In this document: positions 7,174-55,498 of the stretch, piece by piece
Numbering within the stretch: position 1 is the stretch's first letter
Layout: each line of letters begins with the position of its first letter
DNA from: Candidatus Woesearchaeota archaeon
GTDB taxonomy: Archaea > Nanobdellota > Nanobdellia > SCGC-AAA011-G17 > GW2011-AR20
Length of the DNA stretch: 64,000 bases
Direction of reading: 5' to 3'
Assembly: GCA_964419925.1 (NCBI GenBank)
Contig: CAYQPR010000002.1
Coordinates: forward strand, 2,002 to 66,001
The notes under the pieces: model-generated
Seen by the model: the letters and a program-made list of their open reading frames with translations, nothing else
What the model was told of the DNA's origin: nothing
The model's database searches: none
Translations under genes and position numbers: made by a program

Positions 7174-8466
7174 TTAAGGAACATATCTTAGCATCGTTCT
7201 AGGGTAAGGTATTGCATCCTTGATATTGTCTAAACCACAAATCCAAGATATAATTCTTTCAACACCCATTCCAAATCCACCATGAGGAACACTTCCATAT
7301 TTTCTTGTATCCAAATAAAATTCATAATTCTTTGGATTTTCTCCCTGCTCTTTTAATCTAGAAATTATTTTATCTTTATCGGGCTCTCTTTCACTTCCAC
7401 CTATAATCTCACCATAACCTTCAGGAGCAATAAAATCACAACCAAAAACAACTTTCGTATCTTTTGGATCTTCTTTCATATAAAATGCTTTAACAACTTT
7501 AGGATAATGTGTTACAATTATTGGAGTATCGTATAACTTACTTAATTCATCCTCTTCAATTGTCCTTAAATCTTTTCCCCAATCAATTTTGATTTTACAT
7601 TTTTCTTTTAATATTTTTAAAGCATCAGTATAAGTCATTCTTGGAAAAGGTTTTTTTAATATTGGTTCCAATTTCTTAACATCTCTTTCTAAAAGTTTCA
7701 ATTCTTCTTTATTATTTTCCAAAACTTCTTTAACAATATTTTTAATTAAATTTTCGCCATGATCTTGAATATCTTTAAAGGAAGCCCAAGCCTGTTCCAT
7801 TTCAGCATGCCAGTACTCCGTCAAATGTCTAGACGTCTTAGATTTTTCAGCTCTAAAACTTGGTGCGATGCAATACACTTTTTCTAAAGCAAAAATAGCT
7901 GGCTCAGCATACAACTGCCATGTTTGTGCCAAAAATAATTTTTTTCCAAAATAATCTACATTAAATAGCGTGCTTCCACCTTCACACTGAACACTTTGTA
8001 TTATGGGACTTTGAAATTCATAAAAACCTTCATTTCTAAAATAATCATGTATTGCTTTAAAAATAGTACTCCTTATCTTTAATATAGAGGTCATCTTTCT
8101 GCTTCTTAACCATAGATGTCTATTATCTAATAATAGTTCAGGACTTTGATCTTTATTTATTGGAAATATCTCTGCAAATTGAATAACATTTATTTTACTA
8201 ACCTGAATTTCATATCCTGTTGGAGCTCTTTTATCTTCCTTTATTTCTCCTTCAATTTCTAAAGAGCTTTCAATTAAAATTTTATTAGAATCTTCCCATT
8301 CTTTCTTTGTAACTTTATCTTGTTTAATTACACATTGAATAATATTTGTAGAATCTCTAACCACTAAAAAAATCATGTCTTTCTGTTTTCTTTCACGATG
8401 AACCCATCCGTGAATACTTACATTACCTTTTCCCTTTTCAATTGCTTCTTGTATTTGAATAAACAT
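7174..8466 (-). CDS. asnS: asparaginyl-tRNA synthetase (class IIb)
   Basis: N-terminal OB anticodon-binding domain (GWVHRER). Class II motifs FRAE...RHLTEYWHAE and GGSER are present. The HLTE(F/Y) region favours AsnRS over AspRS. Confidence 0.65.
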   Translation of the reverse strand: MFIQIQEAIEKGKGNVSIHGWVHRERKQKDMIFLVVRDSTNIIQCVIKQDKVTKKEWEDSNKILIESSLEIEGEIKEDKRAPTGYEIQVSKINVIQFAEIFPINKDQSPELLLDNRHLWLRSRKMTSILKIRSTIFKAIHDYFRNEGFYEFQSPIIQSVQCEGGSTLFNVDYFGKKLFLAQTWQLYAEPAIFALEKVYCIAPSFRAEKSKTSRHLTEYWHAEMEQAWASFKDIQDHGENLIKNIVKEVLENNKEELKLLERDVKKLEPILKKPFPRMTYTDALKILKEKCKIKIDWGKDLRTIEEDELSKLYDTPIIVTHYPKVVKAFYMKEDPKDTKVVFGCDFIAPEGYGEIIGGSEREPDKDKIISRLKEQGENPKNYEFYLDTRKYGSVPHGGFGMGVERIISWICGLDNIKDAIPYPRTMLRYVP

Positions 8467-9417: not shown

Positions 9418-10695
9418 TTATGGTGTTAACCTATCTCGATCCCTTGCAAACAAAACCGCTTCCCTAATATTATCTAACTTTAATAATGTCATAGTAAATC
9501 TTTCTAAACCAATTGACCATCCAGAATGCATCGGAGCTCCTGTTCTAAAGCTATCAACATAAAATTCAAAATTATCCGGATTTAATTTTTTATCTTTTAA
9601 TTGTTTTATTAAAATCTCGGGAATGTGAACGCGTTGTCCTCCAGAACTTATTTCAACTCCACCATACAAAGCATCAAATCCCTTACTCAACCTCTCTCTT
9701 TTATCTAAACTTTTTGGAAAAATATAGAATGGTTTTAATGTAGAAGGCCAAGAATGGGTAAATACAATCATATCCGGATACATTTCACATAATTTTCTTT
9801 CAGATTCAGGTGTAAAATCTTCTCCAATTTTTAAACCAACAAGTTTAATTGCTTCATCATAACTTAAGTATTTTGCTTTTGGAATTTTCAATTTTAAATT
9901 TAAATTTTCTAATTCATCTTTACATTTTTCAATTACATTTTTAACAATAAATGCAACACAATCTTCTAAATATTTCATAACTTTAAAATCATCTGCAAAG
10001 GCAACTTCAATATCCATTTGTCTTGATTCATTCAAGTGTCTTATTGTATTATGTTTCTCCGCTCTCCAAACGGGAGTTATTGTAAATACCCTTTCTAAAG
10101 AAATTGCACATAATTGTTTATATAATTGAGGACTTTGTGCTAGATAAGCTTTTTTCTCAAAATACTTAACTTCAAATAACTCAGTTCCACCCTCGGAAGC
10201 ACTTGCAATAATGCTTGGAGGTTGTATCTCAATAAAATTTAATTTTCTAAAAAATTCTCTAAAAGAACTTGAAATTTCGCTTTGAATTTTAAATATTGCC
10301 TTAACCTTTTTCTTCCTTAAATCTAAACTCCTATGTTCTAATCTCGTGCTTAAATCAGTAATGATATCTTTATCTTTTTCATAAACTTGTATTGGAAGAT
10401 TTTCAGCCTTATTCAATAACTCTAATTCATCAACACTGATTTCAAAATTATTAATTGTTAATTCAGAAGATGTTAATTTAGCTTCTTTTATTTTTCCCCT
10501 AATTGAAATAACACTTTCTAATGTTAATTTCTCATCAAAACCTTTAGCTTCATTTTTTATAACACATTGAACGATTCCAGTTATATCTCTTAAAAGAATA
10601 AACTTGGCTTTGGGTAATTCTCTAATATCATGAACCCAACCTTTCAATAAAACTTCCTTTTTATCTTTAAGTTCATTAACGTAGCTTCTTTCCAT
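9418..10695 (-). CDS. aspS: aspartyl-tRNA synthetase (archaeal type, class IIb)
   Basis: GWVHDIRE OB domain, then WRAEKHNTIRHLNE...DIEVAF and GGQR class II motifs. The HNTxRHLNE region is typical of archaeal AspRS. Confidence 0.7.
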   Translation of the reverse strand: MERSYVNELKDKKEVLLKGWVHDIRELPKAKFILLRDITGIVQCVIKNEAKGFDEKLTLESVISIRGKIKEAKLTSSELTINNFEISVDELELLNKAENLPIQVYEKDKDIITDLSTRLEHRSLDLRKKKVKAIFKIQSEISSSFREFFRKLNFIEIQPPSIIASASEGGTELFEVKYFEKKAYLAQSPQLYKQLCAISLERVFTITPVWRAEKHNTIRHLNESRQMDIEVAFADDFKVMKYLEDCVAFIVKNVIEKCKDELENLNLKLKIPKAKYLSYDEAIKLVGLKIGEDFTPESERKLCEMYPDMIVFTHSWPSTLKPFYIFPKSLDKRERLSKGFDALYGGVEISSGGQRVHIPEILIKQLKDKKLNPDNFEFYVDSFRTGAPMHSGWSIGLERFTMTLLKLDNIREAVLFARDRDRLTP

Positions 10696-25943: not shown

Positions 25944-27047
25944 ATGAGTGATAAAGTGTTAAATGAAGAACTCGTTCTTGAACATGCCTTTGAAATTAAG
26001 AAGGTTAAACACAATTATAGTCCTGAAGAAAAACTTATAGTAGATCGTGCAAATGCAATTTTAAGTTATAGAAATGGTATTGTTAGAAATTTAGAAGATT
26101 ATGTTGAATCATTACTAAAGACAAGGTTAAATGAAGTCGGTAATGAAAGAAACTGGCAACCCTCTGATTTTTTACCTGATTTTTCATTAGGAAATTGGAA
26201 ACAAGAAGTTGAAAGACTTCAAAAACAATCCAAAGGAATATCCGATGAATTAATGGTAGTATTGATTGGAAATTTAGTAACAGAAGAAGCACTTCCAACT
26301 TATCAGACATTTCTTAATAAATTTGATGGCATTAAAGATTTGACCGGAGCACAGAACACTGCTTGGGCTAAGTGGACAAAGGGTTGGACCGCTGAAGAAA
26401 ATAGACACGGAGATTTACTGCACTGTTATTCATTTTTATCCGGGCGTTTTAATATGAGAACAGTGTATGACACTATTCAACTTTTAATAATGAATGGTTT
26501 TGATGCCGGAGCCGGAGAAGATCCATTTAAAGTATTTGAATATACAAGTTTTCAGGAAAGAGCAACTAGAATTTCTCATACAAATACTGGTAAAATTGCA
26601 AAGCAACAAGGAGATGAATTATTATACAAGATATGTACTATGATTGCTAAAGATGAAACAAGACATGAAAGTTTTTATACTCTCTGTATGAAAAAAATTT
26701 TTGATATAGATCCAAATGGGGCAATGACCTCTTATGCTTGGATGATGAAAAAAAATATATCTATGCCTGCAAAATTAATAAGTGATAATAAGAATCCAAA
26801 TTTGTTTAAAGATTTTTCAGCCGCTGCCGAGCGTGTAGGAGTTTACACAGCAAGAGACTATGCGGAGATAATAAACCATCTAAACAATGAATGGGAAATA
26901 GCTGAAGTAAAGGTAACAACTATAGAAGCAAGTCAAGCTCAAGAATATTTATTAAATCTACCAGAAAGATACTTAAAACTTTCAGATAGAAAAAGAAGTT
27001 CCGAAAGAACATTTGATCCAAAATATTTTTCCTGGTTAAAAAATTAA
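25944..27047 (+). CDS. soluble acyl-ACP desaturase-family di-iron protein (DesA-like)
   Basis: The two di-iron motifs TAEENRHGD and AKDETRHE sit in a ferritin-like four-helix context. Local GC looks slightly above neighbours. Confidence 0.75.
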   Translation: MSDKVLNEELVLEHAFEIKKVKHNYSPEEKLIVDRANAILSYRNGIVRNLEDYVESLLKTRLNEVGNERNWQPSDFLPDFSLGNWKQEVERLQKQSKGISDELMVVLIGNLVTEEALPTYQTFLNKFDGIKDLTGAQNTAWAKWTKGWTAEENRHGDLLHCYSFLSGRFNMRTVYDTIQLLIMNGFDAGAGEDPFKVFEYTSFQERATRISHTNTGKIAKQQGDELLYKICTMIAKDETRHESFYTLCMKKIFDIDPNGAMTSYAWMMKKNISMPAKLISDNKNPNLFKDFSAAAERVGVYTARDYAEIINHLNNEWEIAEVKVTTIEASQAQEYLLNLPERYLKLSDRKRSSERTFDPKYFSWLKN

Positions 27048-27049
27048 AA

Positions 27050-27244
27050 TTAACCACCAGAAATAACACTTAATAATTTTAGTTCATCGCTATCTTTTAA
27101 TTCAGTGTTTTCTAAAATAAGTTCATTGTTTCTTGAAAATAAAACAGTTTCAGAATTAATTTTTAATTTACTTAAAACTTCTTTTGGGTTCTTAGCTTTT
27201 AAATTTATGATTCTATCTTCTTTTTCAATAAAAATTTTAACCAT
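27050..27244 (-). CDS. ThiS/MoaD-like ubiquitin-fold sulfur-carrier protein ending in Gly-Gly. The start is the internal Met MVKIF; the track ORF 27050..27328 is N-extended.
   Basis: C-terminal ...LSVISGG-stop. About 64 aa of beta-grasp size. Its ATG overlaps the stop of the upstream ORF (TATGGTTAA). Confidence 0.65.
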   Translation of the reverse strand: MVKIFIEKEDRIINLKAKNPKEVLSKLKINSETVLFSRNNELILENTELKDSDELKLLSVISGG

Positions 27245-27572
27245 AATAAATAACCTCTGATTCAATTGGAGTCTTAGAAGAATCTTGTAAAAATAATTTA
27301 TTTTCTGGAATTTCATTTTTAAGATCAAGTTCTAAAAAACAATAAGAGGGGATTTTTAATTTATTGTTTTCAAAAGAACAACCAACCGAGTTAATTCTTA
27401 AATAATAAAAAGTATGATTAATATGGTTTTTTATGAATTCTAAAGAAATGGGGGTTTTTCTATATAAAGTGTATTCGTCTCCGTTAAATCCAAAAGGTTC
27501 GCCTTCAATATTAACTACATCACCTAAATTAAGTAAATTATTTACAGATTTATTTTTATTTAATTCGTCCAT
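27237..27572 (-). CDS. hypothetical protein, translationally coupled to the Ubl gene
   Basis: 111-aa ORF with no motif. It sits between the ThiI-like and Ubl genes. Confidence 0.45.
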   Translation of the reverse strand: MDELNKNKSVNNLLNLGDVVNIEGEPFGFNGDEYTLYRKTPISLEFIKNHINHTFYYLRINSVGCSFENNKLKIPSYCFLELDLKNEIPENKLFLQDSSKTPIESEVIYYG

Positions 27573-27596
27573 AAAAACTCATTGAACTAAAATGAT

Positions 27597-28205
27597 TTAT
27601 AAAACTTTCTTTAAGTTTTTTAAAGAACTTTCAACCAGTTTATTTACGTTAATCTTATTTTCTTCCTTTAATAAAATTTCTTCATTAGATCTAGTTGCAG
27701 GATGTTTTGGTCCAAGAATATTACACATCTCTGGTCCTTTAGAAGTTTCAAAAGTATCTATTTTTCTGGCAATTTTAATAATTTCATCTTTATCATAACA
27801 CAACAAAGGACTTATGATTGGGATTTCAACAGCCTTTCTAATACTAACTAAATTTGATAAGGTTTGACTTGAAACTTGTCCGATATTACATCCGTCTAAT
27901 AAAAAATCACACTTCAATTTTTCAGCCAATTTCTCTGCTACTTTGTACATTAATCTTCTAGAAAGGACATAATAATATTTATTATCGCACTTTTTTGTAA
28001 TTTCAGAATGTTCTTCAGAATGGTTAATAACATAAAATTCTTTTATTTTTAACTTTTTACAAATTTCTAAAGATTTCTTTTCAGGAGTATTATCTGTAAA
28101 TGGTTCTAAAGAAAAATGCAATGCAACTATTTCCATCTTAGGCTTCATTAAGTAAATTGCAATGGGTGAATCAAATCCGCCAGATAACAATGCTAAAGCT
28201 TTCAT
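27597..28205 (-). CDS. ThiI-type PP-loop ATPase domain protein (no THUMP domain)
   Basis: LALLSGGFDSPIA PP-loop at the N-terminus. 202 aa. Confidence 0.65.
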   Translation of the reverse strand: MKALALLSGGFDSPIAIYLMKPKMEIVALHFSLEPFTDNTPEKKSLEICKKLKIKEFYVINHSEEHSEITKKCDNKYYYVLSRRLMYKVAEKLAEKLKCDFLLDGCNIGQVSSQTLSNLVSIRKAVEIPIISPLLCYDKDEIIKIARKIDTFETSKGPEMCNILGPKHPATRSNEEILLKEENKINVNKLVESSLKNLKKVL

Positions 28206-28558
28206 TTCACTTCAAAGAAATTTAGTTTACCTTTTAAAGGAATTGGTTTAATCCTATGATTATTTTTTAGTCTAAAACCATATCTTACGAAAATTTTTGC
28301 AAAATGTTTATTATAGTCTTTATCAAATTCTTCTTTAGATTTATATTCCTTAACATCTACTAATTCAGCTTTTCCAATCAAACAACCAGTAACTAAATCT
28401 TTCAAATTAATTTCATCACAATACTCTAAATCAGAATTCTTAGAAGAATGTATAAAAAATTCCCCTCTAAAATTAGTTTTCCATTTTCTAGTTTCAATTG
28501 TTTTCTTTCCTGAAACAATCAATTCTGCCCAAGGCTGTTTTAGAGATAAAGCTTTCAT
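28202..28558 (-). CDS. ASCH/PUA-like domain protein
   Basis: LSLKQPWAELIVSGKKTIETR is the characteristic ASCH N-terminal beta-strand motif. Confidence 0.6.
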   Translation of the reverse strand: MKALSLKQPWAELIVSGKKTIETRKWKTNFRGEFFIHSSKNSDLEYCDEINLKDLVTGCLIGKAELVDVKEYKSKEEFDKDYNKHFAKIFVRYGFRLKNNHRIKPIPLKGKLNFFEVK

Positions 28559-29505
28559 TTTCCAGCTTCATAAATTTCATCAGCAATTTCCATAACTTTA
28601 TTCTCATCTCTTAAAGTCTTAAAAATAATTTCACCTTCTTTATTAATAATAACTTGCTCATTATCAACTTCAATCAAAATTGTATTTCCTGCATCTCTTA
28701 ATTCACCAAATTTTTTCTTAATCTTCTCAAGATTCAACTTTTTATGAGTCTTAACAGTTAATGTAGTTTTAGTTCTGCACAATTCAAGTTTAAATTTTTT
28801 CTCAACCATTTTACCGTTACAAACTTCGCAATCTGTATTTTTATTAACTTTTATTTTTTCAAATAAATTCTTATCTAAATTTATCCTTATTAAACTTTCT
28901 TCATAGTCTTTATTCAACAAGATCTTAAAAGCCTCACTAACTTGCAAACTTGAAATTAAAGTAGTAATTGTATTCAAAACTCCTATGTCTTCACATCTGT
29001 CAAATTCTTTTATGTTTCTGTAAATACAGTTAAAACATGCTTTTCCAGGCATAACATTAAAAATTAATCCATGATTTTGAATAGCTGCAGCATGAACCCA
29101 AGGGATCTTATTTTTTGAACAAAAATCATTTATCAAAAACCTTACTTCTAAATTATCGGTACAATCTAAGACTAAGTCGGATTTAATTAAATTAATATTT
29201 TCTTGATTTAGTTTAACATTATACCTTTTAATCTTAATCTTAGAATTAACTTTTTTTAAATAATCGCAAGCAACATCAGATTTAAACAACCCAATATTCC
29301 CTTCAGTGTAAATATTTTGTCTTTGCAAATTGCTTAATTCAACTTTATCTTTATCTACTAAAATTAAATTTACACCAGATCTTGTTAATAAATTACTAGA
29401 GTTACTTCCTAAAGCTCCTAATCCAACTACACAAACGGTTTTTCGATTAAGTAATTCTTGATTCTCTTTTTCAATCAAAATCTCCTGTCTTGAATATCTC
29501 ATCAT
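28555..29505 (-). CDS. E1-like ThiF/MoeB/UbaA-family adenylyltransferase with zinc CxxC pairs and an extra roughly 70-aa C-terminal region
   Basis: RYSRQ...VCVVGLGALGS...LILVDKDKVELSNLQRQ Rossmann/adenylation motif, plus CFNC and CEVC. Confidence 0.8.
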   Translation of the reverse strand: MMRYSRQEILIEKENQELLNRKTVCVVGLGALGSNSSNLLTRSGVNLILVDKDKVELSNLQRQNIYTEGNIGLFKSDVACDYLKKVNSKIKIKRYNVKLNQENINLIKSDLVLDCTDNLEVRFLINDFCSKNKIPWVHAAAIQNHGLIFNVMPGKACFNCIYRNIKEFDRCEDIGVLNTITTLISSLQVSEAFKILLNKDYEESLIRINLDKNLFEKIKVNKNTDCEVCNGKMVEKKFKLELCRTKTTLTVKTHKKLNLEKIKKKFGELRDAGNTILIEVDNEQVIINKEGEIIFKTLRDENKVMEIADEIYEAGK

Positions 29506-29553
29506 TCTAGAGTTTAAATAAAGGTTTTTAAACTTTTATAACCTTAGTAAATT

Positions 29554-31440
29554 ATGAGTTTTAAAGACCTAATTAAAGTAATTAAGAAATATAATCCTGA
29601 ATCAAACATTGAGCTAATAATGAAAGCTTACAGTTTTGCTTCAAAAAAACATCTTAAACAAATTAGAGAATCAGGACATCCTTACATTACCCATCTTGTT
29701 GGAGCTGCTGGAATCTTAGCCAACTTAAAAACAGATGACGAAACAATTGCAGCTTGCTTATTGCACGATACCTTAGAAGATACGAATACAGCCGAAGAAG
29801 AATTAAAAGAAAATTTTGGAGAGGATATTCTAAATCTAATAAAAGGAGTCACAAAAATTAGTAAATTAGTTCTTCCAGATTTTAAAGAAAGACAAGTAGA
29901 GAGTATAAGAAAAATGTTAATTGCAAGCACAAAAGATATTCGAGTTATTTTAATAAAATTAGCCGATAGATTAAACAACATGTATTCTCTTAAATATTTT
30001 CGTGAAGAAAAACAAAAAAGAATAGCAAAAGAAACATTAGAAATTTATGCGCCTTTAGCTTATAGGTTAGGTTTGTTTAATATAAAATGGCAGTTAGAGG
30101 ATTTATCTTTTAGATATTTAGAACCTAAAATTTATCAAGAAATAAAATCAAAAGTTGTTAAAACAAGAAATGAAAGGGAATCAGAGATTAAAAAGATTAA
30201 ATCAATAATAGAAAGAGAGTTAGCAAAACGCAATATAAATGCACAAGTATTTGGAAGAGCAAAAAGTTTCTACAGTATTTACAAAAAAATAACTGAAAGA
30301 AATAAAACAATAGAAGGTATGTATGATTTAATTGCATTAAGGATATTGGTAGAAAAAAAACAACAATGTTATGAAGTTTTAGGAATAATTCATAATTTGT
30401 TTAAACCTGTAGAAGGGAAGATTCAAGATTATATTGCAAACCCAAAACCAAACATGTACCAAAGCTTACATACAATTATTCTTTACAATGAAGATCAAGT
30501 AGAAATCCAAATATTAACAAAAGATATGCATTTGATAAATGAAGAAGGAATTGCGGCACATTGGAGATATAAAGATAAAAAATCTATAAATGATCCTGAA
30601 TTTGAGAAAAAGTTAGGATGGATTAAAGAAGTAATTAACCTAAAATCAAATATGGGAGAAGATTTTCTTGAAAGATTAAAGATTGATTTATTTTTAGACC
30701 ATATCTTTGTTTTTACTCCAAAAAATGATATTGTTGAGCTTCCAAAAGGAGCGACATTACTTGATTTTGCCTATGCCGTACATAGTGATTTAGGAAATTC
30801 ATGTATAGGTGGAAAAGTAAATGATAAATTTGTAAATTTAAAGCACGAACTAAAAAATACTGACCAAGTTGAGATATTAGTTTCAAAAAATCAAAAACCG
30901 AGCAGAGAATGGTTAAAATTTGTTATTTCTCAAAGAACAAAGGAAAAAATTGCACACTATTTAAGAATGCAAAATGAAATTCCAATATCAAATCTAAGAA
31001 AGATGATTAATGAAAAAAATAGTTTAATAAAAAGCGAAACAAAGTCAACTTTTATTAAGATTTCCGAATGTTGTGACCCAATTCCAAATGATCCGATTAT
31101 TGGATTAAGCACAAAAAATAACAAAATTACAGTGCATAAAACAAATTGTAGCAAACTAAATACATTTAGCTTAAAAAAAGTAAAAGTATTTTGGAATGAT
31201 GAAATTGGGTTAACCGTAAATATCAAAGTTATAGCTTCAGATAGATTAGGGTTATTTGCAGACGTTTTAAAAAATATATCTTCATTATATCTAAACATTG
31301 AAAAAGCAAGTGCAAAAACAATCAATAAAGAATTAGGAGAATGCAACATTAAAATTAAAGTAAATTCTTTAGAAGATATAAAAAAAATTGTTGATCAAAT
31401 AAAAAAAATAAATGATGTTAGAAAAGTTAGTTTGAGTTAA
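29554..31440 (+). CDS. long RelA/SpoT homolog (HD hydrolase + (p)ppGpp synthetase + TGS + ACT)
   Basis: HD motif HPYITHLVGAAGILA...LLHDTLEDT. Synthetase motif RAKSFYSIYKKI...YDLIALRILV. TGS IFVFTPKNDIVELPKGATLLDFAYAVHSDLG. C-terminal ACT-like region. Confidence 0.85.
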   Translation: MSFKDLIKVIKKYNPESNIELIMKAYSFASKKHLKQIRESGHPYITHLVGAAGILANLKTDDETIAACLLHDTLEDTNTAEEELKENFGEDILNLIKGVTKISKLVLPDFKERQVESIRKMLIASTKDIRVILIKLADRLNNMYSLKYFREEKQKRIAKETLEIYAPLAYRLGLFNIKWQLEDLSFRYLEPKIYQEIKSKVVKTRNERESEIKKIKSIIERELAKRNINAQVFGRAKSFYSIYKKITERNKTIEGMYDLIALRILVEKKQQCYEVLGIIHNLFKPVEGKIQDYIANPKPNMYQSLHTIILYNEDQVEIQILTKDMHLINEEGIAAHWRYKDKKSINDPEFEKKLGWIKEVINLKSNMGEDFLERLKIDLFLDHIFVFTPKNDIVELPKGATLLDFAYAVHSDLGNSCIGGKVNDKFVNLKHELKNTDQVEILVSKNQKPSREWLKFVISQRTKEKIAHYLRMQNEIPISNLRKMINEKNSLIKSETKSTFIKISECCDPIPNDPIIGLSTKNNKITVHKTNCSKLNTFSLKKVKVFWNDEIGLTVNIKVIASDRLGLFADVLKNISSLYLNIEKASAKTINKELGECNIKIKVNSLEDIKKIVDQIKKINDVRKVSLS

Positions 31441-31939
31441 TTTTACTTAATATTTTTTTAACTGTTTCTTCTATGCTTAATCCCCCAGTATTAATTATAA
31501 TATTGTAAAGTTTTTTGTTTCTATAATCAACATGATAATGTTTTTTGTAATGTTCCAATTCCAATCTTTCCCTAGACAATATTTTTTTCACCGTTTCTTT
31601 ATAATCCAATTTTTCCCTTTTCATTATTCTTTTAACTCTTTCTTTTAAACTACAAGATAAATAAATTTTATAATCTGCATTTTTTATCAAATAAGCTCCT
31701 AATCTTGAATCGATAATTGCATTTTTCTTCTTAGCAATAACCTTCTGTTTTTTATCTAATAAATCAACCAATTTAGGATTTTCTTTCATTAATTTAATAA
31801 CATCTTCATGTTTTTTTCTCGCAAATTTTCTAAAGATATCACCAATAGAATAATGTTTAATATGTAAGTGTTTTGCAAGTTCTTTAGAAACACTTGTCTT
31901 TCCAGAACCAGGTAATCCCGTAATCGTAATAATCATCAA
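31427..31939 (-). CDS. cmk: cytidylate kinase, archaeal type
   Basis: ITITGLPGSGKTSVSKELA P-loop. The overall pattern matches archaeal CMP kinases of about 175 aa. Confidence 0.75.
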   Translation of the reverse strand: MMIITITGLPGSGKTSVSKELAKHLHIKHYSIGDIFRKFARKKHEDVIKLMKENPKLVDLLDKKQKVIAKKKNAIIDSRLGAYLIKNADYKIYLSCSLKERVKRIMKREKLDYKETVKKILSRERLELEHYKKHYHVDYRNKKLYNIIINTGGLSIEETVKKILSKINSN

Positions 31940-33678: not shown

Positions 33679-34560
33679 ATGGGTAGATTTGAAGATTTTT
33701 ACGAAAGAAACTATAAAAAGTTAATTGTAATCTCATATTCAATCTTGTTTCTAAGTCTAATTGTAATCGGAGTTCACTATTTTAAAACCGGAGAGTTTTT
33801 TGATAAAGACATTTCATTAAAAGGGGGTGTAAGTGTAACCATATACAAAGAAGATTTAAATGTTAATGATGTTAAAGAACTCCTTAAGCAAAATTTCAAA
33901 GACTATAGTGTAAGAGAATTAACTGATTTTAATACTAATCAAAACATAGGGGTTATAATAGAAGTAGCAGATATTCAAGAGTCACAATTAAGAGACGTTT
34001 TAAAAACAAAATATAATCTCAATTTTAATAATAAAGAAGAATATGATCCAGGATTAACAAATTCTAGTTTTAGTCAAAGTTTTTACAAAGGATTAATCAT
34101 TGCAATAATTTTCTCATTTGTCTTGATGTCATTAGTTGTTTTTCTATCCTTCAAAACATTTATACCTAGCATCGCAGTAATATTTGCAGCATTAACAGAT
34201 ATTCTTGGAGCACTTGCCGTAATAGATATTATTGGAATGAAACTATCTGCAGCAGGAATTGTTGCATTTTTATTAATTATTGGATATTCGATTGATACGG
34301 ATATCTTGCTTACAACAAGGATGTTAAAAAGACATGACCATCCATTGCTAGAAAGAATGAAAGCAAGCATGATTACAGGAATGACGATGACGATAGCAGC
34401 AATTGCAGCATTAATGACCGGATATTTTATAGCAATTCCAGAAGAACTAAAACAAATTTTCTTAATAGTCTCAATTGCATTATTATTTGACATTCCATCA
34501 ACTTATTTTGGAAATGGAGGAATATTACTCCATTACTGTAAAAAGAAAAACATAACATGA
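33679..34560 (+). CDS. secF: protein-export membrane protein SecF
   Basis: N-terminal TM, a small periplasmic domain, then 5 C-terminal TM helices. It overlaps secD. Confidence 0.65.
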   Translation: MGRFEDFYERNYKKLIVISYSILFLSLIVIGVHYFKTGEFFDKDISLKGGVSVTIYKEDLNVNDVKELLKQNFKDYSVRELTDFNTNQNIGVIIEVADIQESQLRDVLKTKYNLNFNNKEEYDPGLTNSSFSQSFYKGLIIAIIFSFVLMSLVVFLSFKTFIPSIAVIFAALTDILGALAVIDIIGMKLSAAGIVAFLLIIGYSIDTDILLTTRMLKRHDHPLLERMKASMITGMTMTIAAIAALMTGYFIAIPEELKQIFLIVSIALLFDIPSTYFGNGGILLHYCKKKNIT

Positions 34561-36119
34561 ACCTAAAAAAATTTTTAAAGATTAGAATATTAATTTTGAT
34601 ATTTTGTTTGATAATTAGTGTAGTAGCAATAAATCCAAAGTTTGATGCTGAGGGGGTTGTAATAAAAGGTGTTGAAAAAAATAGCACTGCTGCATCAGCA
34701 GGGATGATATTTAATCCCGATGTAACTCCAACAAATTTAGAAAAAATTCTTGAGATAAATAATAATAAAATAATAAGTATTCAAGATTATAATAATGCTA
34801 TAGATAAAATAAATAATTCTGGAATTTTAAAGATAAAGACAAATAAGCAAGAATATGCTATGATTAAAACAGGTAACATCGGAATAAATATAGGTGAAGC
34901 AGCTGGAAGCAATTTAAGAAAAGGTTTAGATTTACAAGGTGGAACAAGGGTTGTTCTTCAGCCAGAAGGAATTTTAAACGATAAAGATACTTCCGATATA
35001 ATAAAAATAATTGAATCGAGATTAAATGTTTATGGGTTAAGTGATATTAAAGTAAGGCAAAGCAAAGATTTGTTTGGAGGCAATTTTATTGTAGCTGAAG
35101 TCGCAGGAGTATCCAAACAGGAAGTTAAGGAATTAATTGCAAGTCAGGGTAAATTTGAAGCAAAAATAGGAAATGATGTTGTATTCATTGGAGGAAAGAA
35201 AGATATTACTTTTGTCGGAAGAGACGACGCTAGATATTCAAGAATAACCCAATGTGGTCAAACAGAATCGGTTTCATATCAATGTCAGTTTGAGTTTGCA
35301 ATAAAATTAAGTCCTGAAGCTGCAAAAAGGCATGCACAGATAACAGATAAACTTGATGTAAATTTAAGTTCAAGCGGAAACAATTATTTAAGCAAACCTT
35401 TAGATTTATACTTAGATGACAATCTTGTAGATAGTCTTCAGATTTCTAGCAACTTAAAGGGAAAAGAAGCAATAGATATTGCAATTTCAGGAGCCGGAAT
35501 AGGGGAAACGCTAAAGGATGCTGAAAAAGATGCCCAGAAAAATATGAATAAATTACAAACTGTTTTAATAACAGGAAGTTTGCCTATAAAATTAAATATT
35601 GTAAAAATAGATACTATAAGTCCAAGTTTAGGAAAATCATTTGCAAATAATGCAATTTGGGTAATACTTGGAGCAATTATCGCAGTTTCAATTGTAATTT
35701 TTATCAGATACCGAGATTTAAAAATCTCCGTTCCAGTAATAATCTTTTCATTCAGTGAAATATTAATATTGTTAGGATTTGCAGCATTAATAAGGTATAA
35801 TTTAGATTTAGCGGCCATCGCAGGAATATTAGCCGCGGTTGGAACGGGAGTTGACGATCAGATTGTTATTGTAGATGAAATCTTAAAAGGAAAGAAAGAA
35901 GAAAAAATTAATGTTGGATTTAAAGATAAAATAAAGAGAGCTTTCTTTGTTATAATGGTTGCTTGGGTAACGGGCGTTGCTTCAATGTTGCCTTTATTCT
36001 GGGCAGGTGCAGGATTGTTTACAGGATTTGCATTAACAACAATTGCAGGAATCTCAATAGGGGTATTTATAACAAGACCAGCATTTGCAGCAGTTGTAGA
36101 AATTCTTGAAGAAAATTAA
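34557..36119 (+). CDS. secD: protein-export membrane protein SecD
   Basis: N-terminal TM, a large periplasmic P1 domain with KGLDLQGGTRVVLQ, and a C-terminal 5-TM bundle. Confidence 0.7.
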   Translation: MNLKKFLKIRILILIFCLIISVVAINPKFDAEGVVIKGVEKNSTAASAGMIFNPDVTPTNLEKILEINNNKIISIQDYNNAIDKINNSGILKIKTNKQEYAMIKTGNIGINIGEAAGSNLRKGLDLQGGTRVVLQPEGILNDKDTSDIIKIIESRLNVYGLSDIKVRQSKDLFGGNFIVAEVAGVSKQEVKELIASQGKFEAKIGNDVVFIGGKKDITFVGRDDARYSRITQCGQTESVSYQCQFEFAIKLSPEAAKRHAQITDKLDVNLSSSGNNYLSKPLDLYLDDNLVDSLQISSNLKGKEAIDIAISGAGIGETLKDAEKDAQKNMNKLQTVLITGSLPIKLNIVKIDTISPSLGKSFANNAIWVILGAIIAVSIVIFIRYRDLKISVPVIIFSFSEILILLGFAALIRYNLDLAAIAGILAAVGTGVDDQIVIVDEILKGKKEEKINVGFKDKIKRAFFVIMVAWVTGVASMLPLFWAGAGLFTGFALTTIAGISIGVFITRPAFAAVVEILEEN

Positions 36120-46842: not shown

Positions 46843-47661
46843 TTATAGGGAATTAATATCAAGAATACCTTTTAATAACTTTCGTCTTTGTTCTAAGGTG
46901 GTGTGTATTGGGCAGAATCCAAACCTCTTCCATACAAAATATTTGCTGTAATGTTTTGGGTTGCTAAACCCAATAATGGTAATCCATTTTTCCAAATTTT
47001 TCTTGCCAACAATCACAACACGATAATGTTTAAACACCCTATTATTTCGCTTACGTTTTCCTTTCTCTAAATAACTATGTATTCCCAACTTGTTTAATAA
47101 CACCTTTAACTGTTTTGTTAATTTCTCTGAGGCAAATTGACCTCCAATTAATGGGTAATGATGTTTCTTAAATTTGGTATCTTTTCTTATTTTAAACACC
47201 AAATAAAAATCCGTATCAGCAATTCCCCTAATTAATGCAGAAATAATTTTATTATCCTTAGTTTCAAAAAAATATTTGGGTATTTTATAAGAATTATCCA
47301 ATTTATTTCCAGGTGTATATTTCATATTTTTAACGAAAAAATTAATTATAGATTTAGAGGTTACACAGATTTTTATTCCATTTGTTCCAGAAATTTTACG
47401 AATATATGGCCTTACGTTAAAAAGATTGTAAAATAAATCTGATATTATAATGTTATGATAATCTAAATCTTCTTGAGCATGTCCGTATACAAATAACTCA
47501 TATTTTCTTCTGTTAGATGGTTTTTCTTTTAAATGGATGCACCCGTCTCCAATCATTAAACCAAATAATTCTGCCAAATCAGAAGTTAATTTATTAGGCA
47601 AATGAACATCTCTTTTTATATCTGAATTACTGAATGAAATTTTTGAGTTATCAAATATCAT
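46843..47661 (-). CDS. double-motif LAGLIDADG homing endonuclease, free-standing
   Basis: Motif 1 LAELFGLMIGDGCI and motif 2 ISALIRGIADTDFY. 272 aa. A TATA-like TTTATAA lies about 30 nt upstream. The ORF ends exactly where the tRNA gene begins. Confidence 0.75.
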   Translation of the reverse strand: MIFDNSKISFSNSDIKRDVHLPNKLTSDLAELFGLMIGDGCIHLKEKPSNRRKYELFVYGHAQEDLDYHNIIISDLFYNLFNVRPYIRKISGTNGIKICVTSKSIINFFVKNMKYTPGNKLDNSYKIPKYFFETKDNKIISALIRGIADTDFYLVFKIRKDTKFKKHHYPLIGGQFASEKLTKQLKVLLNKLGIHSYLEKGKRKRNNRVFKHYRVVIVGKKNLEKWITIIGFSNPKHYSKYFVWKRFGFCPIHTTLEQRRKLLKGILDINSL

Positions 47662-47760
47662 TTTTATATCAAAAATCTCTTCTTACTTATAAAGTTGACC
47701 CGCGAGGTTGTCACTTGGACAGTTGGGAAAAAATGTATATTTTAAAGAATATAAATAAAA

Positions 47761-47835
47761 CGGGCCTGATGGGATTTGAACCCACGATCTTCAGCTTAGA
47801 AGGCTGACATCCAATCCAGGCTAGACGACAGGCCC
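47761..47835 (-). tRNA. tRNA-Arg (anticodon TCT), no intron
   Basis: Acceptor GGGCCTG/CAGGCCC. Anticodon arm TCAGC-CTTCTAA-GCTGA. T-arm GTGGG-TTCAAAT-CCCAT. Discriminator G. Confidence 0.75.
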
Positions 47836-47879
47836 ATAATAAAAACCACCTCTATGAAGATATTTAAACCTTTTCAAAA

Positions 47880-51395: not shown

Positions 51396-53840
51396 ATGTA
51401 TAACTTTAAAGAAATAGAAGAAAAATGGCAAGATAAATGGGAAAAATCAAAAATATTTAAAGTTAAATTAGATAATAAAAAAAAGAAGTTCTATAATTTA
51501 GAAATGTTCCCGTACCCCTCAGGTGCCCTGCACATGGGTCATGTAAGAAATTATTCAATCGGTGATGCATATGCAAGATTCAAAAGAATGCAGGGTTATA
51601 ATGTTCTTTATCCAATGGGTTATGACGCTTTTGGTTTGCCAGCAGAGAATGCGGCTATAAAAAATAAAATAAATCCAAAAGATTGGACATTTAACAATAT
51701 AACGATAATGAAAGAACAGCAGATGCAATTAGGCTTAAGTTACGACTGGGATAAAGAATTAGCAACATGCACATCAGAATATTATAAATGGAATCAGTTT
51801 ATATTTCTAAAATTTTATGAAAAAAATCTTGTTTATAGAAAAGAAGCTTTAGTTAATTTCTGTAATTCATGTAAAACCGTTTTAGCAAATGAACAGGTTA
51901 TAAACGGAAAATGTTGGAGATGCAAAAACGAAATTGAGTTAAAAAATTTAGAACAATGGTTTTTGAAGATTACAGAATATGCTGAAGAATTATTAAACGA
52001 TTTAGACAAATTAGACTGGCCTGAAAAGGTTAAGATAATGCAAAAAAATTGGATTGGAAAAAGTGAAGGAACCCTAATTAAGTTTCAATTAGAAAATTCA
52101 AAAGAATATTTAGAAGTGTTCACAACGAGACCCGATACACTATACGGAGTAACATTCGTTACAATGGCTCCAGAAAATCCCAAAGTTGCTGAGTTAATTA
52201 AAAATCATAAAAACAAAGAAAGTATTGAAAATTTTATCAAAAAAGTTATCAACGAAGAAAAGTTTTCAAGAACAGCAGAAGATAAAGAAAAATATGGAAT
52301 TCCATTAAATAAAAATGTTATTCATCCATTAACCAATGAAAAAATTCCAATTTACTTAGCTAACTTTGTTTTACCCGATTATGGAACTGGAATTGTAATG
52401 GGTGTTCCAGCCCATGATCAAAGAGATTTTGAGTTTGCAAAAAAGTATAAGTTACCTGTTAAAGTTGTAATAACTCCAAAAGATAAAAAATTAACAGATT
52501 TAAAAGAAGCTTATTTAGGTGAAGGAATTTTAATTAATTCAAATAAATTTAATGATTTAGAAAACAAAAAAGGCGTTGAAGAGATCACTAAACATTTATC
52601 TGGATTAAAACTTGGAAAAAGAGAAATTCAATATAAATTACGTGATTGGTTAATTTCAAGACAAAGATATTGGGGAACGCCAATTCCTATAATTTACTGT
52701 AACAATTGCGGAATTCTTCCAGAAAAAAATCTTCCAGTTAAATTGCCTGAAAATGTTAAGTTTACTGGAGAAGGAAATCCACTTAGTTCCTCAAAAGAGT
52801 TTATTAATGTAAAATGTCCAAAATGTAATAAACAAGCCAGAAGAGAAACAGACACCATGGATACTTTTTTTGACTCCTCTTGGTATTATTTAAGATACTG
52901 CGATGTAGACAATGATAAACTACCTTTTTCTAAAAAAAATGTTAATTACTTTATGCCCGTAGATCAATACATCGGCGGAATAGAACATGCAATATTACAT
53001 TTACTTTATTCAAGATTTTTCACAAAAGCATTCAGAGATTTAAAACTATTAAATTTTAATGAACCGTTTAAAAAATTATTAACACAAGGGATGGTGCTAA
53101 AAGATGGAGAAGTGATGAGTAAGAGCAAAGGAAATGTTGTTGATCCTAGAACAATAATTGAAAAATACGGAAGCGATTCATTAAGAACTTTTATTTTATT
53201 TATAGCTTCTCCAGAAAAAGAATTCAATTGGAGTGATGATGGTATTGAAGGAATTTTTAAGTTTTTGAATAGAGTTTATTCCTTATTAGATAAGATAAAT
53301 AAAAAAAATGATTTAATTGTTGAAAGCAAATTAAATAAATTGATTAAAAAAGTTACAGAAGAAATTGAAAATTTCAAATATAATAACGCAATAATTTCCA
53401 TAATGGAATTTAGTGATTATATAAAAGACAAGAATTATGATAAAAATACTTTAACGAAATTAATTTTATTGTTTAGTCCATTTTCACCTCACCTTGCAGA
53501 AGAAATGTTTTCAAAATTAGGAAACAAAGGATTTGCTTCTTTAGAAAAATGGCCAAAATGCGACGAGAAGAAAATTAATGAAAACTTGGAGAAAGAAGAA
53601 GAAATTATTGAAAAATTAATTCAAGATATTAAAAATATTAAAAAATTAGCAAATATTGAAAATCCAGAAGTTTACCTTTATTGTATTCCAAAAGAAATTG
53701 ATTTGTATGAGAAAAATAAAGATAAAATTAAAGATTGTAAAAACATTAAAATTTATGCTGTTAACGACAAAAATAAGTTTGATCCAGAAAATAAATCTTC
53801 TAAAGCTAAATTAGGAAAACCTGCGATATATTTAAAATAA
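51396..53840 (+). CDS. leuS: leucyl-tRNA synthetase, bacterial-type
   Basis: FPYPSGALHMGHVRNYSIGDAYARFKRMQGYNVLYPMGYDAFGLPAENAA (bacterial LeuRS HMGH region) and VMSKSKGN (KMSKS). 814 aa. Confidence 0.85.
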   Translation: MYNFKEIEEKWQDKWEKSKIFKVKLDNKKKKFYNLEMFPYPSGALHMGHVRNYSIGDAYARFKRMQGYNVLYPMGYDAFGLPAENAAIKNKINPKDWTFNNITIMKEQQMQLGLSYDWDKELATCTSEYYKWNQFIFLKFYEKNLVYRKEALVNFCNSCKTVLANEQVINGKCWRCKNEIELKNLEQWFLKITEYAEELLNDLDKLDWPEKVKIMQKNWIGKSEGTLIKFQLENSKEYLEVFTTRPDTLYGVTFVTMAPENPKVAELIKNHKNKESIENFIKKVINEEKFSRTAEDKEKYGIPLNKNVIHPLTNEKIPIYLANFVLPDYGTGIVMGVPAHDQRDFEFAKKYKLPVKVVITPKDKKLTDLKEAYLGEGILINSNKFNDLENKKGVEEITKHLSGLKLGKREIQYKLRDWLISRQRYWGTPIPIIYCNNCGILPEKNLPVKLPENVKFTGEGNPLSSSKEFINVKCPKCNKQARRETDTMDTFFDSSWYYLRYCDVDNDKLPFSKKNVNYFMPVDQYIGGIEHAILHLLYSRFFTKAFRDLKLLNFNEPFKKLLTQGMVLKDGEVMSKSKGNVVDPRTIIEKYGSDSLRTFILFIASPEKEFNWSDDGIEGIFKFLNRVYSLLDKINKKNDLIVESKLNKLIKKVTEEIENFKYNNAIISIMEFSDYIKDKNYDKNTLTKLILLFSPFSPHLAEEMFSKLGNKGFASLEKWPKCDEKKINENLEKEEEIIEKLIQDIKNIKKLANIENPEVYLYCIPKEIDLYEKNKDKIKDCKNIKIYAVNDKNKFDPENKSSKAKLGKPAIYLK

Positions 53841-53887: not shown

Positions 53888-55498
53888 ATGCAAAAAAACG
53901 TTGCTTTTTTAACATTTTCCTTGTTCGTAGTTCTAATTGTTGTAAACGCTTGTAGCAATGTAAAAGGAATAGAAATAAATCAGAAATTTGAGCCTAAGTC
54001 AGAATTAATAATAAATGAGGGATTAAATAAAGATAAAATCATTGAAGGGATTAGTTTTTATCAGAAATTAAAATATAATTCAGAATACCTATTGACTGAT
54101 GAAGGTGGTTTGATAATCTCTCAAAGTGAAAATGTTTCTCCAGTTCTTAAAAAAATATTTAACAAAGAAGGTAATCAAGGTGGAAAAGATTTACTCAAAT
54201 TGGTTATTCACGGAAAGAAGTTAGATTCTAAAAATTGGAGGAAAATAATTTCGGTTTTGATACTTAGAGACAATGTTCCAATAGCAAGTTATAGAAATGA
54301 TTTCAATAATCAAAATGATTTAACATTAGAGATACCAAATGTTAAAGGAAAAAATTTAGAAATTTATTACGTGACAAGAATTTTTGATTTAGACAATCCA
54401 AAAAATTCTAATATAATATTTTACGGCTCAAAACTGCCAGACGATCCTGAAGAATATGAAATATATGAAAAAGAATCAAAACCAATAAGAACAAATTTTA
54501 AAGAGATTTCAAAAAGTATAAACCTAAAAGAAATTTATGAATTTGAGATTGCAATAAAACCTCTTGACATTAATATGATTGATACATATTCTTTTTTAAA
54601 TGATTACTCAGCAACAGAAGCTTATTTTTATAATAATAATTTTTTTGAAGAAGTCTTTATTTCACAAACCGGAGGCGAAATAGGTAAATCAATCTCTAGA
54701 TCAAGGGGGTTAATTACTGCACAACACAAATTTATGGAATTAGAAAATTTAACGTATAATTATAGTTCTTCTGATTTCGAGAGACGTAGTATAAAGTGGT
54801 ATAAATCGTTTAATTTTAATCCAGATGGATATCCTGGACATTTAGATTTTGTGTTTAGCAATTTTTATGATACAGACTATGAAATAAATGGATTAGATAC
54901 AATGAAACCAATGTACCAAATTGGGTTTTCTGAGATCCCAAAGACAACAAAATTATACTACAATAAAGATTCAAACATTCTTACGGGTACTGGGGGCCAT
55001 TGGCCTAATAAACCGGATTATGAAATCACAAGAGGATTATCAGAAAGTTTTGTTTTCAATATTGAAAATGCTCCAAAACTTAATAAAGAAATTGCATTTT
55101 ATAAATCTCCTTTAAAACTTAAAATCAACGTTGCTTATCCGGAAAATCCAGAAGAATTAAAACAGATTTTTTATGGTTATTTTAAAAGCAATTATAATTA
55201 TTATTCTCCAATTCCTTTAGATTATGTTCTTGTTTTAGGTTATATTTATCCTTCCTTCAGATTCTATACTCAAACAAGTCTAAATCTTCCAGATAATACT
55301 ACTAAAGTGTCAGAAGGCTCTCCTTTAATAAATTGTAATTATCCAACAGAATCAAATCCACCAATTTCTTACTGCCAAAAAGGAATCTATCAAATAACTT
55401 GGGATGCTTCTGACATCGTAAAAAATGGTCAAAAAAAGATAACAAAAAAAGTTTGTTATACTGGAACGTACTTCTCAACAGATTTAGAACTATGTTAA
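53888..55498 (+). CDS. secreted protein of unknown function (signal peptide, Cys after the hydrophobic core)
   Basis: MQKNVAFLTFSLFVVLIVVNAC. 536 aa, Asn/Tyr-rich. Confidence 0.5.
   Translation: MQKNVAFLTFSLFVVLIVVNACSNVKGIEINQKFEPKSELIINEGLNKDKIIEGISFYQKLKYNSEYLLTDEGGLIISQSENVSPVLKKIFNKEGNQGGKDLLKLVIHGKKLDSKNWRKIISVLILRDNVPIASYRNDFNNQNDLTLEIPNVKGKNLEIYYVTRIFDLDNPKNSNIIFYGSKLPDDPEEYEIYEKESKPIRTNFKEISKSINLKEIYEFEIAIKPLDINMIDTYSFLNDYSATEAYFYNNNFFEEVFISQTGGEIGKSISRSRGLITAQHKFMELENLTYNYSSSDFERRSIKWYKSFNFNPDGYPGHLDFVFSNFYDTDYEINGLDTMKPMYQIGFSEIPKTTKLYYNKDSNILTGTGGHWPNKPDYEITRGLSESFVFNIENAPKLNKEIAFYKSPLKLKINVAYPENPEELKQIFYGYFKSNYNYYSPIPLDYVLVLGYIYPSFRFYTQTSLNLPDNTTKVSEGSPLINCNYPTESNPPISYCQKGIYQITWDASDIVKNGQKKITKKVCYTGTYFSTDLELC

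Follow-up and report, generated by a model that had tools for sequence, protein, structure and literature searches.

Long RelA/SpoT homologues (RSHs) are near-universal in bacteria and, per a 2011 survey, were not known in archaea (Atkinson et al. 2011, PMC3153485). In E. coli RelA, the alpha-helical (AH) domain (aa 485-580) contacts the A/R-tRNA, Linker helix 1 runs beneath the tRNA acceptor arm, Linker helix 2 connects the AH domain with the RIS domain and packs against the ACT domain, and RIS and ACT form the anchor at bridge B1a, which involves the A-site finger, S19 and L16 (Loveland 2016, PMC4974054). In B. subtilis Rel, His420 reads the tRNA CCA end by stacking on the 3'-CCA, and stable tRNA binding was seen for a TGS-Helical fragment and not for TGS alone (Takada 2021, PMC7797070). 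For archaea, the main text of Li et al. (2021, mSystems, PMC8407392) gives the share of genomes with RelA/SpoT as 69% for Diapherotrites, 41.7% for Woesearchaeota, 21.3% for Pacearchaeota and 19% for Nanoarchaeota, and predicts a bacterial origin for these DPANN genes. Reviews of archaeal second messengers continue to regard the domain as free of (p)ppGpp; one of 2023 holds that no (p)ppGpp is on record for archaea and that an important role is improbable (PMC10249747). Here we describe a long RSH gene in a 64,000-nucleotide stretch of DNA from a Candidatus Woesearchaeota archaeon (contig CAYQPR010000002.1 of assembly GCA_964419925.1; the whole stretch is referred to as the window). The gene is almost certainly an archaeal resident of ancient bacterial origin, and it belongs to a single clade of archaeal RSHs, comprising at least 80 protein clusters, that share one ancestral deletion in the AH region.

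The presence of such genes in DPANN archaea and the prediction that they are of bacterial origin are already known from Li et al. 2021. The statement in the first-pass annotation of this window that archaea carry at most small RSHs is dated, as it reflects the 2011 survey and predates the report of RelA/SpoT in four DPANN phyla. For the AH deletion, architecture, active-site state and synteny of archaeal long RSHs, no description was found in the literature searched, and the AH-less architecture appears to be undescribed.

The RSH gene is an uninterrupted 628-aa ORF with an ATG start (29554..31440, + strand). Its product matches the NCBIfam model TIGR00691 (spoT_relA) over the whole protein with 655.5 bits against a cutoff of 499.2. 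The SpoT equivalog NF008303 (512 bits, threshold 947) and the RelA equivalog NF008124 (408 bits, threshold 728) were not reached, as expected for a Rel-type protein. Together with the Pfam domains, the TIGR00691 match confirms the first-pass annotation of a genuine long RSH with HD, synthetase, TGS and ACT domains. The layout of the gene is as follows:

29554..31440, + strand: complete RSH gene, a long RelA/SpoT homologue of Rel type that belongs to the archaeal AH-less clade (ORF; TIGR00691; identical public protein P0001).
29626..30075, + strand: HD (p)ppGpp hydrolase domain, aa 25-174 (Pfam HD_4, 1.8e-45).
30253..30582, + strand: SYNTH (p)ppGpp synthetase domain, aa 234-343 (Pfam RelA_SpoT, 5.6e-37).
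30703..30879, + strand: TGS domain, aa 384-442, carrying His410 (Pfam TGS, 1.2e-20; alignment to 6yxa).
30898..30987, + strand: remnant of the AH domain, aa 449-478, the equivalent of Linker helix 1 (alignment with bacterial long forms; AlphaFold secondary structure).
30988..31026, + strand: deletion scar, aa 479-491, a short low-confidence linker (gap blocks in short forms; local model confidence, pLDDT).
31027..31197, + strand: RIS or zinc-finger (CC) domain, aa ~492-548, with C506, C507, H528 and C532 (PF28438 RelA_RIS; aligns to the zinc-finger domain of 8fr8_I).
31213..31428, + strand: ACT or RRM domain, aa 554-625, beta-alpha-beta-beta-alpha-beta (Pfam ACT_4, 6.5e-13; model secondary structure).

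The PF28438 assignment comes from the precomputed Pfam annotation of the identical public protein, and the zinc-finger and ACT part is also aligned by a mycobacterial-type RelA chain. The best relative of solved structure is the bifunctional Rel 6yxa_A (6.3e-142, aligned over aa 6-488). The AlphaFold model, for which 30 clade members were used, reaches an average pLDDT of 78.8. Over the catalytic half it can be superposed on Rel of T. thermophilus (6s2u) with a TM-score of 0.87 and an rmsd of 2.7 A; the arrangement of domains along the whole chain is not interpretable at a pTM of 0.51.

Bacterial long RSHs exceed the protein in length by ~95-100 aa, a difference due to the loss of most of the AH domain, which separates TGS from the zinc finger: the AH core and Linker helix 2 are deleted, and the Linker-helix-1 equivalent alone remains. 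When short forms were aligned with long forms, the loss appeared as two gap blocks with identical boundaries in every short form. Likewise, PF19296 (RelA_AH_RIS), which is carried by the nearby bacterial matches, had no match in this protein or in its ~70 short relatives. The remnant is modelled as helices at aa 453-456 and 460-473 followed by a 13-residue low-confidence linker, with pLDDT below 50 at aa 475-487. The connector between the end of TGS and the CC motif is 57 aa long here and 121-193 aa in bacterial long forms, and three classes of connector could be distinguished:

Short, 55-65 aa: 83 sequences, in archaeal context where checked.
Intermediate, 76-94 aa: 9 sequences, in bacterial context for the two checked.
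Long, 121-193 aa: ~175 sequences, bacterial where named in the protein search.

The intermediate class was considered as a set of archaeal transitional forms and rejected, as both checked loci are bacterial (HU, Der and secDF-apt-rel-dtd; flagellar hook genes). The description "full-length" in the first-pass annotation is therefore right for the four named domains and does not hold for the AH core. Because the AH domain is not retained, we regard the protein as an architectural variant and not as a canonical long RSH.

In a collection of 5.8 billion proteins, the identical protein is followed in rank by ~70 clusters of 620-663-aa proteins that are 44-65% identical to it over their full length. 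The organism labels of these short relatives, where given, are Nanoarchaeota archaeon, Candidatus Woesearchaeota archaeon or "archaeon", and several clade members have already been named "bifunctional (p)ppGpp synthetase/hydrolase" by NCBI. Bacterial matches (~715-745 aa, with PF19296) rank below this archaeal set, align to no more than the first 75% of the protein, with 48-54% identity, and include Moorellaceae, Carboxydocella, Calderihabitans and Acetivibrionales. A scan of GTDB species genomes using single-protein patterns returned 9 loci, the window's own genome not being among the species representatives, and the confirmed close loci are metagenome-assembled genomes (MAGs) of Woesearchaeota/Nanoarchaeota. 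The block ThiF/RSH/cmk…DUF357…Trm56…SecF-SecD is conserved in five Woesearchaeota/Nanoarchaeota genomes (L003, L004, L008, L009 and L012), where the neighbours are 56-80% and the RSH 55-65% identical to those of the window; the gene has co-diverged with its neighbours and has therefore been inherited vertically. Deeper clade members, on contigs of 47 kb to 841 kb, also adjoin archaeal genes (aIF2-gamma, S6e and aIF5B; NAC, Sec61-beta, S2 and Orc1/Cdc6; archease and RtcB), and the neighbour of one, on a 117-kb contig from assembly GCA_000402515.1, is an archaeal ThrRS editing domain. At loci L017 (6872-9923) and L018 (6924-9992) the RSH gene is divergent from an adjoining Orc1/Cdc6 gene, with Sua5 and RtcB near in both; this setting is a second conserved RSH neighbourhood, unlike that of the window.

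Neighbour-joining trees were generated from columns at least 90% occupied, with the deleted region excluded, and the AH deletion therefore carries no weight in them. With the 49 bacterial sequences nearest to them in the tree, the short forms held together in 200/200 bootstraps; with 187 diverse 50%-identity representatives, 80 short forms made one bipartition in 86/100 bootstraps. A single clade failed in the 267-sequence tree with all short forms, and three outliers were then set aside, namely a fragment of 590 aa and a pair of divergent sequences, of which one comes from a 4.2-Mb contig.

Archaeal signature genes flank the RSH gene on both sides across the 64 kb, the nearest of them within a few hundred bases. 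These markers and the immediate neighbours are, in order:

2.4-5.9 kb: proteasome-alpha/SBDS/Rrp4/Rrp41/Rrp42 superoperon.
15.8-19.7 kb: GatE and GatD.
28555..29505, - strand: ThiF/MoeB/UbaA-type E1, divergent neighbour (Pfam ThiF, 9.7e-57).
29506..29553, + strand: presumed promoter, an AT-rich 48-nt spacer common to the RSH gene and the divergent ThiF gene (sequence read directly).
31427..31939, - strand: archaeal-type (d)CMP kinase (cmk), convergent neighbour (TIGR02173 cyt_kin_arch, 126 bits, cutoff 102).
32.0-33.2 kb: DUF357 and aTrm56.
40.1-41.1 kb: ribosomal P0.
58.9-60.1 kb: Nre.

The archaeal context that the first-pass annotation had described, with cmk and an E1-like gene as neighbours, is thus borne out. 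GC content is uniform along the window (24-32%; genome ~27%). The RSH gene itself has a GC of 0.266 (0.285+-0.03 for the other 36 window genes) and a GC3 of 0.167 (0.180+-0.022), its codon usage falls within the distribution of those 36 genes, and its tetranucleotide distance to the window profile lies at the 42nd percentile of same-sized windows. The identical RSH protein and the ThiF/RSH/cmk/DUF357/Trm56/SecF junctions were found in two assemblies made by different pipelines (a 92.4-kb ENA contig and a 13.9-kb Logan contig). Rfam and tRNA scans of the window returned one tRNA and no rRNA.

The spacer between the RSH and ThiF genes is presumed, from its sequence, to be a promoter region. It holds the TATA-like runs tttaaata, tttttaaa and ttttataa, which are not discriminating because the genome has 27% GC, and no Shine-Dalgarno-like GGAGG was read in its 48 nt ahead of the RSH ATG. 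The 3' ends of cmk and the RSH gene overlap by 14 nt, as they also do in L012, and the RSH gene appears to be monocistronic.

Horizontal transfer from bacteria is the best reading of the gene's origin because long RSHs are near-universal in bacteria and, among archaea, turned up in this analysis only in DPANN-type contexts, and because the nearest non-archaeal matches are Bacillota Rel proteins. The direction, from bacteria to archaea, is taken from this distribution and from the conclusion that Li et al. 2021 published. By distance the nearest bacterial sequences are Bacillota-like, which may reflect slow evolution of these sequences rather than ancestry. Two MAGs labelled "Tenericutes" (L005 and L006) were considered as donors of the short form and rejected, their ORFs being ordinary 715-aa long forms. 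A recent transfer was also rejected, given the host-like GC, GC3, codon usage and tetranucleotides and the co-divergence of the gene with its syntenic neighbours. The horizontal acquisition proposed in the first-pass annotation accordingly stands as regards bacterial origin, and not as a local event; the acquisition is ancient and clade-wide, and was followed by vertical descent.

All metal-binding and catalytic residues of the hydrolase are present (R38, H47, H71, D72, E75, D76, D138 and N142, the counterparts of RelSeq R44, H53, H77, D78, E81, D82, D144 and N148). This residue string, RHHDEDDN, is the same as in 181/187 bacterial long RSHs and is intact in 60/80 archaeal clade members. Judging from these residues, the hydrolase is very likely active. 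D76, the second residue of the hydrolase ED pair, is kept by only 78% of the archaeal clade.

The synthetase domain retains R235, K237, K245, D258, R263, Y293, K298, N300, Y302, H306, E317, Q319 and E330, which include all the catalytic (D258/E317/Q319), ATP-binding (R235/K237/K245/R263) and guanine-loop (K298/N300/Y302/H306) residues. A 13-residue synthetase pocket has been described for RelSeq (R241, K243, R269, K297, Y299, K304, N306, Y308, H312, E323, R327, A335 and E336; PMC8801413, citing Kushwaha 2019), and mapping it by offset, with A335 left out, gave 10/13 residues retained and 2 changed. The first change is Q291 (RelSeq K297), which gives the motif KIQD instead of RXKD; its first position is still basic, and it is the Lys of RXKD, a motif that together with EXDD serves as a marker of bifunctional versus monofunctional enzymes, that has become Gln. 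The second is L321 (RelSeq R327), which gives EIQILT instead of EIQIRT. KIQD was seen in no other aligned sequence and L321 is unique among the 267 aligned, the nearest relatives having RFKD or RFRD and mostly R at position 321 (T in four). Of 81 positions whose conservation in bacteria is 95% or more, 75 are kept, and R321L is the only non-conservative change within the catalytic domains. Regarding the degeneracy of the active sites that the first-pass annotation had wished to see checked, the HD site is fully intact and the synthetase catalytic residues are in place, and the substrate pocket is altered at Q291 and L321. From the residues retained, there is a somewhat better than even chance that the synthetase of this protein is active, and it may be weakened or altered here; across the archaeal clade the synthetase is probably active.

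In 36/80 archaeal clade members, and in 5/187 bacterial sequences, RXKD is replaced by an acidic motif of the RelA type, E-x-D or E-x-N. Sub-functionalisation, in which an acidic EXDD-like motif would go with a dead hydrolase, was looked for and not seen, the ratio of intact to altered hydrolases being 30/8 for acidic and 18/7 for basic motifs.

In the regulatory half, H410 of TGS corresponds to H420 in Rel of B. subtilis and to H432 in RelA of E. coli, and both this residue and the zinc-finger CCHC (C506, C507, H528 and C532) are kept in 80/80 clade members. Pairwise identity within the archaeal clade and within bacteria, respectively, is 0.54 and 0.55 for HD, 0.54 and 0.52 for SYNTH, 0.59 and 0.59 for TGS, 0.42 and 0.50 for RIS, and 0.39 and 0.26 for ACT. 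From the invariant His and CCHC residues and the bacterial level of domain identity, we infer that the regulatory half is under selection and is not decaying. A near-invariant Gly of RIS is retained in 64% of the archaeal clade and is N512 in this protein.

The reading we favour, and consider likely, is that the protein is a vertically inherited, Rel-type bifunctional enzyme, descended from a bacterial gene acquired once, which lost the AH core early and whose C-terminal domain (CTD) may still read translation. A single, old uptake of a bacterial long RSH by an ancestor of the archaeal group would have been followed, early in that lineage, by loss of the AH core and Linker helix 2 (~95-100 aa), and the shortened gene would then have diversified along with its hosts. 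As far as conserved residues allow one to predict, the HD domain would carry out Mn2+-dependent (p)ppGpp hydrolysis through H47/H71-D72/D138 and the E75-D76 pair, and the SYNTH domain would transfer pyrophosphate from ATP onto GDP or GTP through D258/E317, possibly less well or in altered form given the changes of K to Q291 and R to L321, so that the enzyme may be hydrolase-biased. The TGS-RIS-ACT region would control the two activities reciprocally, as in Rel, and may still sense uncharged tRNA and/or the ribosome near bridge B1a across a shorter connector, the contacts of the AH domain with the tRNA elbow having been given up. That the region still reads translation status is suggested by the invariance, in the clade, of the CCA-sensing His, the CCHC residues and ACT. 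Ribosome- or tRNA-dependence of the activity, taken by itself, is a tentative prediction that we put somewhat below even, about level with a ribosome-independent, SpoT-like mode. The fuller proposal, in which the AH-less clade would be a working archaeal stringent factor that docks on the ribosome by RIS/ACT, reads uncharged tRNA by His410 with a remodelled, short connector and sets a (p)ppGpp pool controlling the growth of these reduced-genome archaea, seems unlikely at present.

Several points weigh against the favoured reading. The trees are distance-based and unrooted, so the phylogeny called for by the first-pass annotation supports one archaeal clade and does not by itself demonstrate the direction of transfer or the donor; the midpoint root falls between the archaeal clade and all other sequences. 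AH length is an imperfect character, as three short-connector sequences lie outside the clade and nine bacterial AH regions are partly shortened. Q291 and L321 replace two of the 13 RelSeq substrate-pocket residues, and because the R at position 321 is held by 96% of bacterial and 94% of archaeal sequences, the synthetase of this protein may be impaired. Sensing of tRNA without the AH core is doubtful because TGS of B. subtilis Rel alone binds tRNA unstably (PMC7797070). Lastly, the literature search found no enzymatic, metabolite or expression work on any archaeal long RSH.

The alternative that survives best is that the CTD has been uncoupled from the ribosome and tRNA, with TGS-RIS-ACT acting as an autoinhibitory or ligand-binding module, SpoT-like, and a metabolic cue setting the alarmone level. 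In its favour are the loss of the AH core and Linker helix 2 and the unstable tRNA binding of the B. subtilis TGS when isolated; moreover, RIS, whose Gly is often replaced, is alone among the domains in being conserved less well among the archaeal proteins than among the bacterial ones. The strict retention of the CCA-stacking His and the CCHC residues and the equal conservation of TGS are instead what continued recognition of RNA or the ribosome predicts, an argument weakened by the part that these two domains play in autoinhibition as well. We consider uncoupling a real possibility, with the chances somewhat against it.

A second alternative is that the enzyme is effectively hydrolase-only, or that its synthetase has changed substrate, and that it is kept to destroy an alarmone or a related nucleotide. 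The perfect HD site, and the fact that both unique changes, KIQD and L321, fall on RelSeq pocket positions, fit this view. Nevertheless, the catalytic, ATP-binding and guanine-loop residues are intact, the rest of SYNTH is without decay, the nearest relatives retain RFKD and mostly R321, and there would be little reason to keep a hydrolase in a cell that lacks its substrate, except where that substrate is supplied from outside; we hold this alternative to be rather improbable. The first-pass annotation had also raised cross-talk with a bacterial host, whereby an episymbiotic archaeon would make or degrade alarmone to disturb or sense that host. The circumstantial points in its favour are that DPANN archaea are often episymbionts and that the enzyme family is bacterial, but the data hold no signal peptide or secretion-system linkage, an intracellular role is favoured by the complete regulatory CTD and by the housekeeping genes around it, and no evidence was found for bacterial hosts of these lineages, so this idea is unsupported, pure speculation and very improbable. 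Finally, a bacterial contaminant or chimeric contig, suggested by the general risk of metagenome assembly, the bacterial family and the few other bacterial-type genes of the window (LeuRS and AlaRS), is rejected as next to negligible, since archaeal markers lie on both sides, the junctions recur in a second assembly, synteny holds in five genomes, the tetranucleotide and codon profiles are host-like, and the closest RSH relatives are all in archaeal contexts.

In a large, old and well-conserved archaeal clade, purifying selection thus maintains the two catalytic centres of a bacterial stringent factor as well as its regulatory domains, and archaeal use of alarmones becomes a question directly testable with the recombinant protein. 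In these proteins nature has, in addition, carried out an AH-domain deletion: should they remain responsive to ribosomes or tRNA, the contacts that AH makes with tRNA in RelA would be dispensable, and if they do not, they would be an example of a stringent factor rewired after crossing domains. If the clade were indeed a working stringent factor, it would give the domain Archaea its first stringent response based on alarmones; the same lineage has also imported bacterial-type LeuRS and AlaRS.

Several bacterial-type, translation-related genes, LeuRS and AlaRS besides the RSH gene, lie in this one archaeal window. The LeuRS (51396-53840, + strand) scores 1001 bits with TIGR00396 leuS_bact (cutoff 548) and 272 bits with the archaeal TIGR00395 (cutoff 648), and carries the bacterial editing domain PF13603; a class-I aminoacyl-tRNA synthetase with a faint PF13603 match adjoins the RSH gene in a distant clade member (L014). 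The AlaRS (62169-63911, + strand) is a short, 580-aa bacterial-type enzyme (NF002436, 853 bits; TIGR00344, 630 bits; archaeal TIGR03683, 262 bits, cutoff 745). An AsnRS (7174-8466, - strand; NF003037, 505 bits) and a non-discriminating AspRS (9418-10695, - strand; NF003483, 470 bits) lie ~1 kb apart and share the window with GatD/GatE. A protein of the soluble acyl-ACP desaturase family (25944-27047, + strand; PF03405 FA_desaturase_2, 2e-121; no NCBIfam match) is probably another acquired gene, unexpected given isoprenoid lipids.

Next to the RSH gene, a cluster on the - strand (27050-29505) encodes a ThiS-like protein (64 aa), an unknown protein, a PP-loop-only ThiI (202 aa), an ASCH protein and the ThiF-E1, with ThiF last and divergent from the RSH gene. 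The cluster looks like a sulfur-carrier or tRNA-thiolation module and is used here as a context marker for the RSH gene only; ThiF/ThiS are also found within 2 kb of the RSH gene in a 51%-identical clade member. SecF/SecD (33679-36119, + strand) lie 2.2 kb downstream of the RSH gene, and likewise in L003 and L008, and SecF starts at the edge of L012. The bacterial locus L015 (4157-9480), which has an intermediate-form RSH, shows the classic order secD-secF-apt-rel-dtd, and the SecD of the window is 24% identical to its SecD; the shared proximity of SecFD and RSH could be a coincidence or a relic of co-transfer. Elsewhere in the window, a LAGLIDADG-domain ORF (46843-47661, - strand) adjoins tRNA-Arg(TCT) (47760-47836, - strand), the window's only tRNA gene, and a 495-aa PKD/CARDB/Ig-repeat protein (55519-57006, - strand), probably at the cell surface, adjoins a 536-aa ORF with no Pfam match (53888-55498, + strand).

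The closest characterised enzymes to the archaeal protein are the Bacillota Rel proteins (B. subtilis Rel, 6YXA/6HTQ; S. equisimilis RelSeq, 1VJ7), which are also its best-scoring non-archaeal matches at the 48-54% identity given above for the first 75%. It shares with them the order HD-SYNTH-TGS-...-zinc finger-ACT, an identical hydrolase set and the same synthetase catalytic residues. It differs in lacking the AH core and Linker helix 2, in having KIQD for RFKD and L for the R of EIQIRT, and in its archaeal host, whose ribosome and RNA polymerase differ from the bacterial partners and targets. The gene is a case of the phenomenon reported for DPANN RelA/SpoT by Li et al. 2021 (PMC8407392), and Woesearchaeota/Nanoarchaeota are the labels of its nearest relatives; in the searched main text of that paper, which gives RelA/SpoT one sentence, no mention of the AH deletion, synteny, domain architecture or active-site state was found.

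In whole-chain structural comparison, the top match is E. coli RelA on the ribosome (5IQR, 5KPS-5KPX; Foldseek E 1e-39). Both proteins have TGS, RIS and ACT and the H432-equivalent His, and ~45% of archaeal clade members have the acidic ExD/ExN motif as well. Unlike E. coli RelA, with its dead hydrolase and its AH domain at aa 485-580, the archaeal protein has an intact HD site and an AH domain cut to one linker helix. The second-best structural match is full-length SpoT of A. baumannii (7QPR), a bifunctional long RSH with a regulatory CTD and a possible model for ribosome-independent control of the archaeal enzyme. SpoT differs in keeping its full helical/core region, and its sequence similarity is far lower (2.5e-62 versus 6e-142 for Rel). 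The small archaeal RSHs (small alarmone synthetases and hydrolases, SAS/SAH) of Methanosarcina, Methanococcoides and Natronomonas also belong to the RSH superfamily and have likewise been attributed to transfer from bacteria (Atkinson 2011, PMC3153485). In contrast to those single-domain and sporadic proteins, the RSH described here is multidomain, with both catalytic domains and a CTD, and is conserved across a large archaeal clade.

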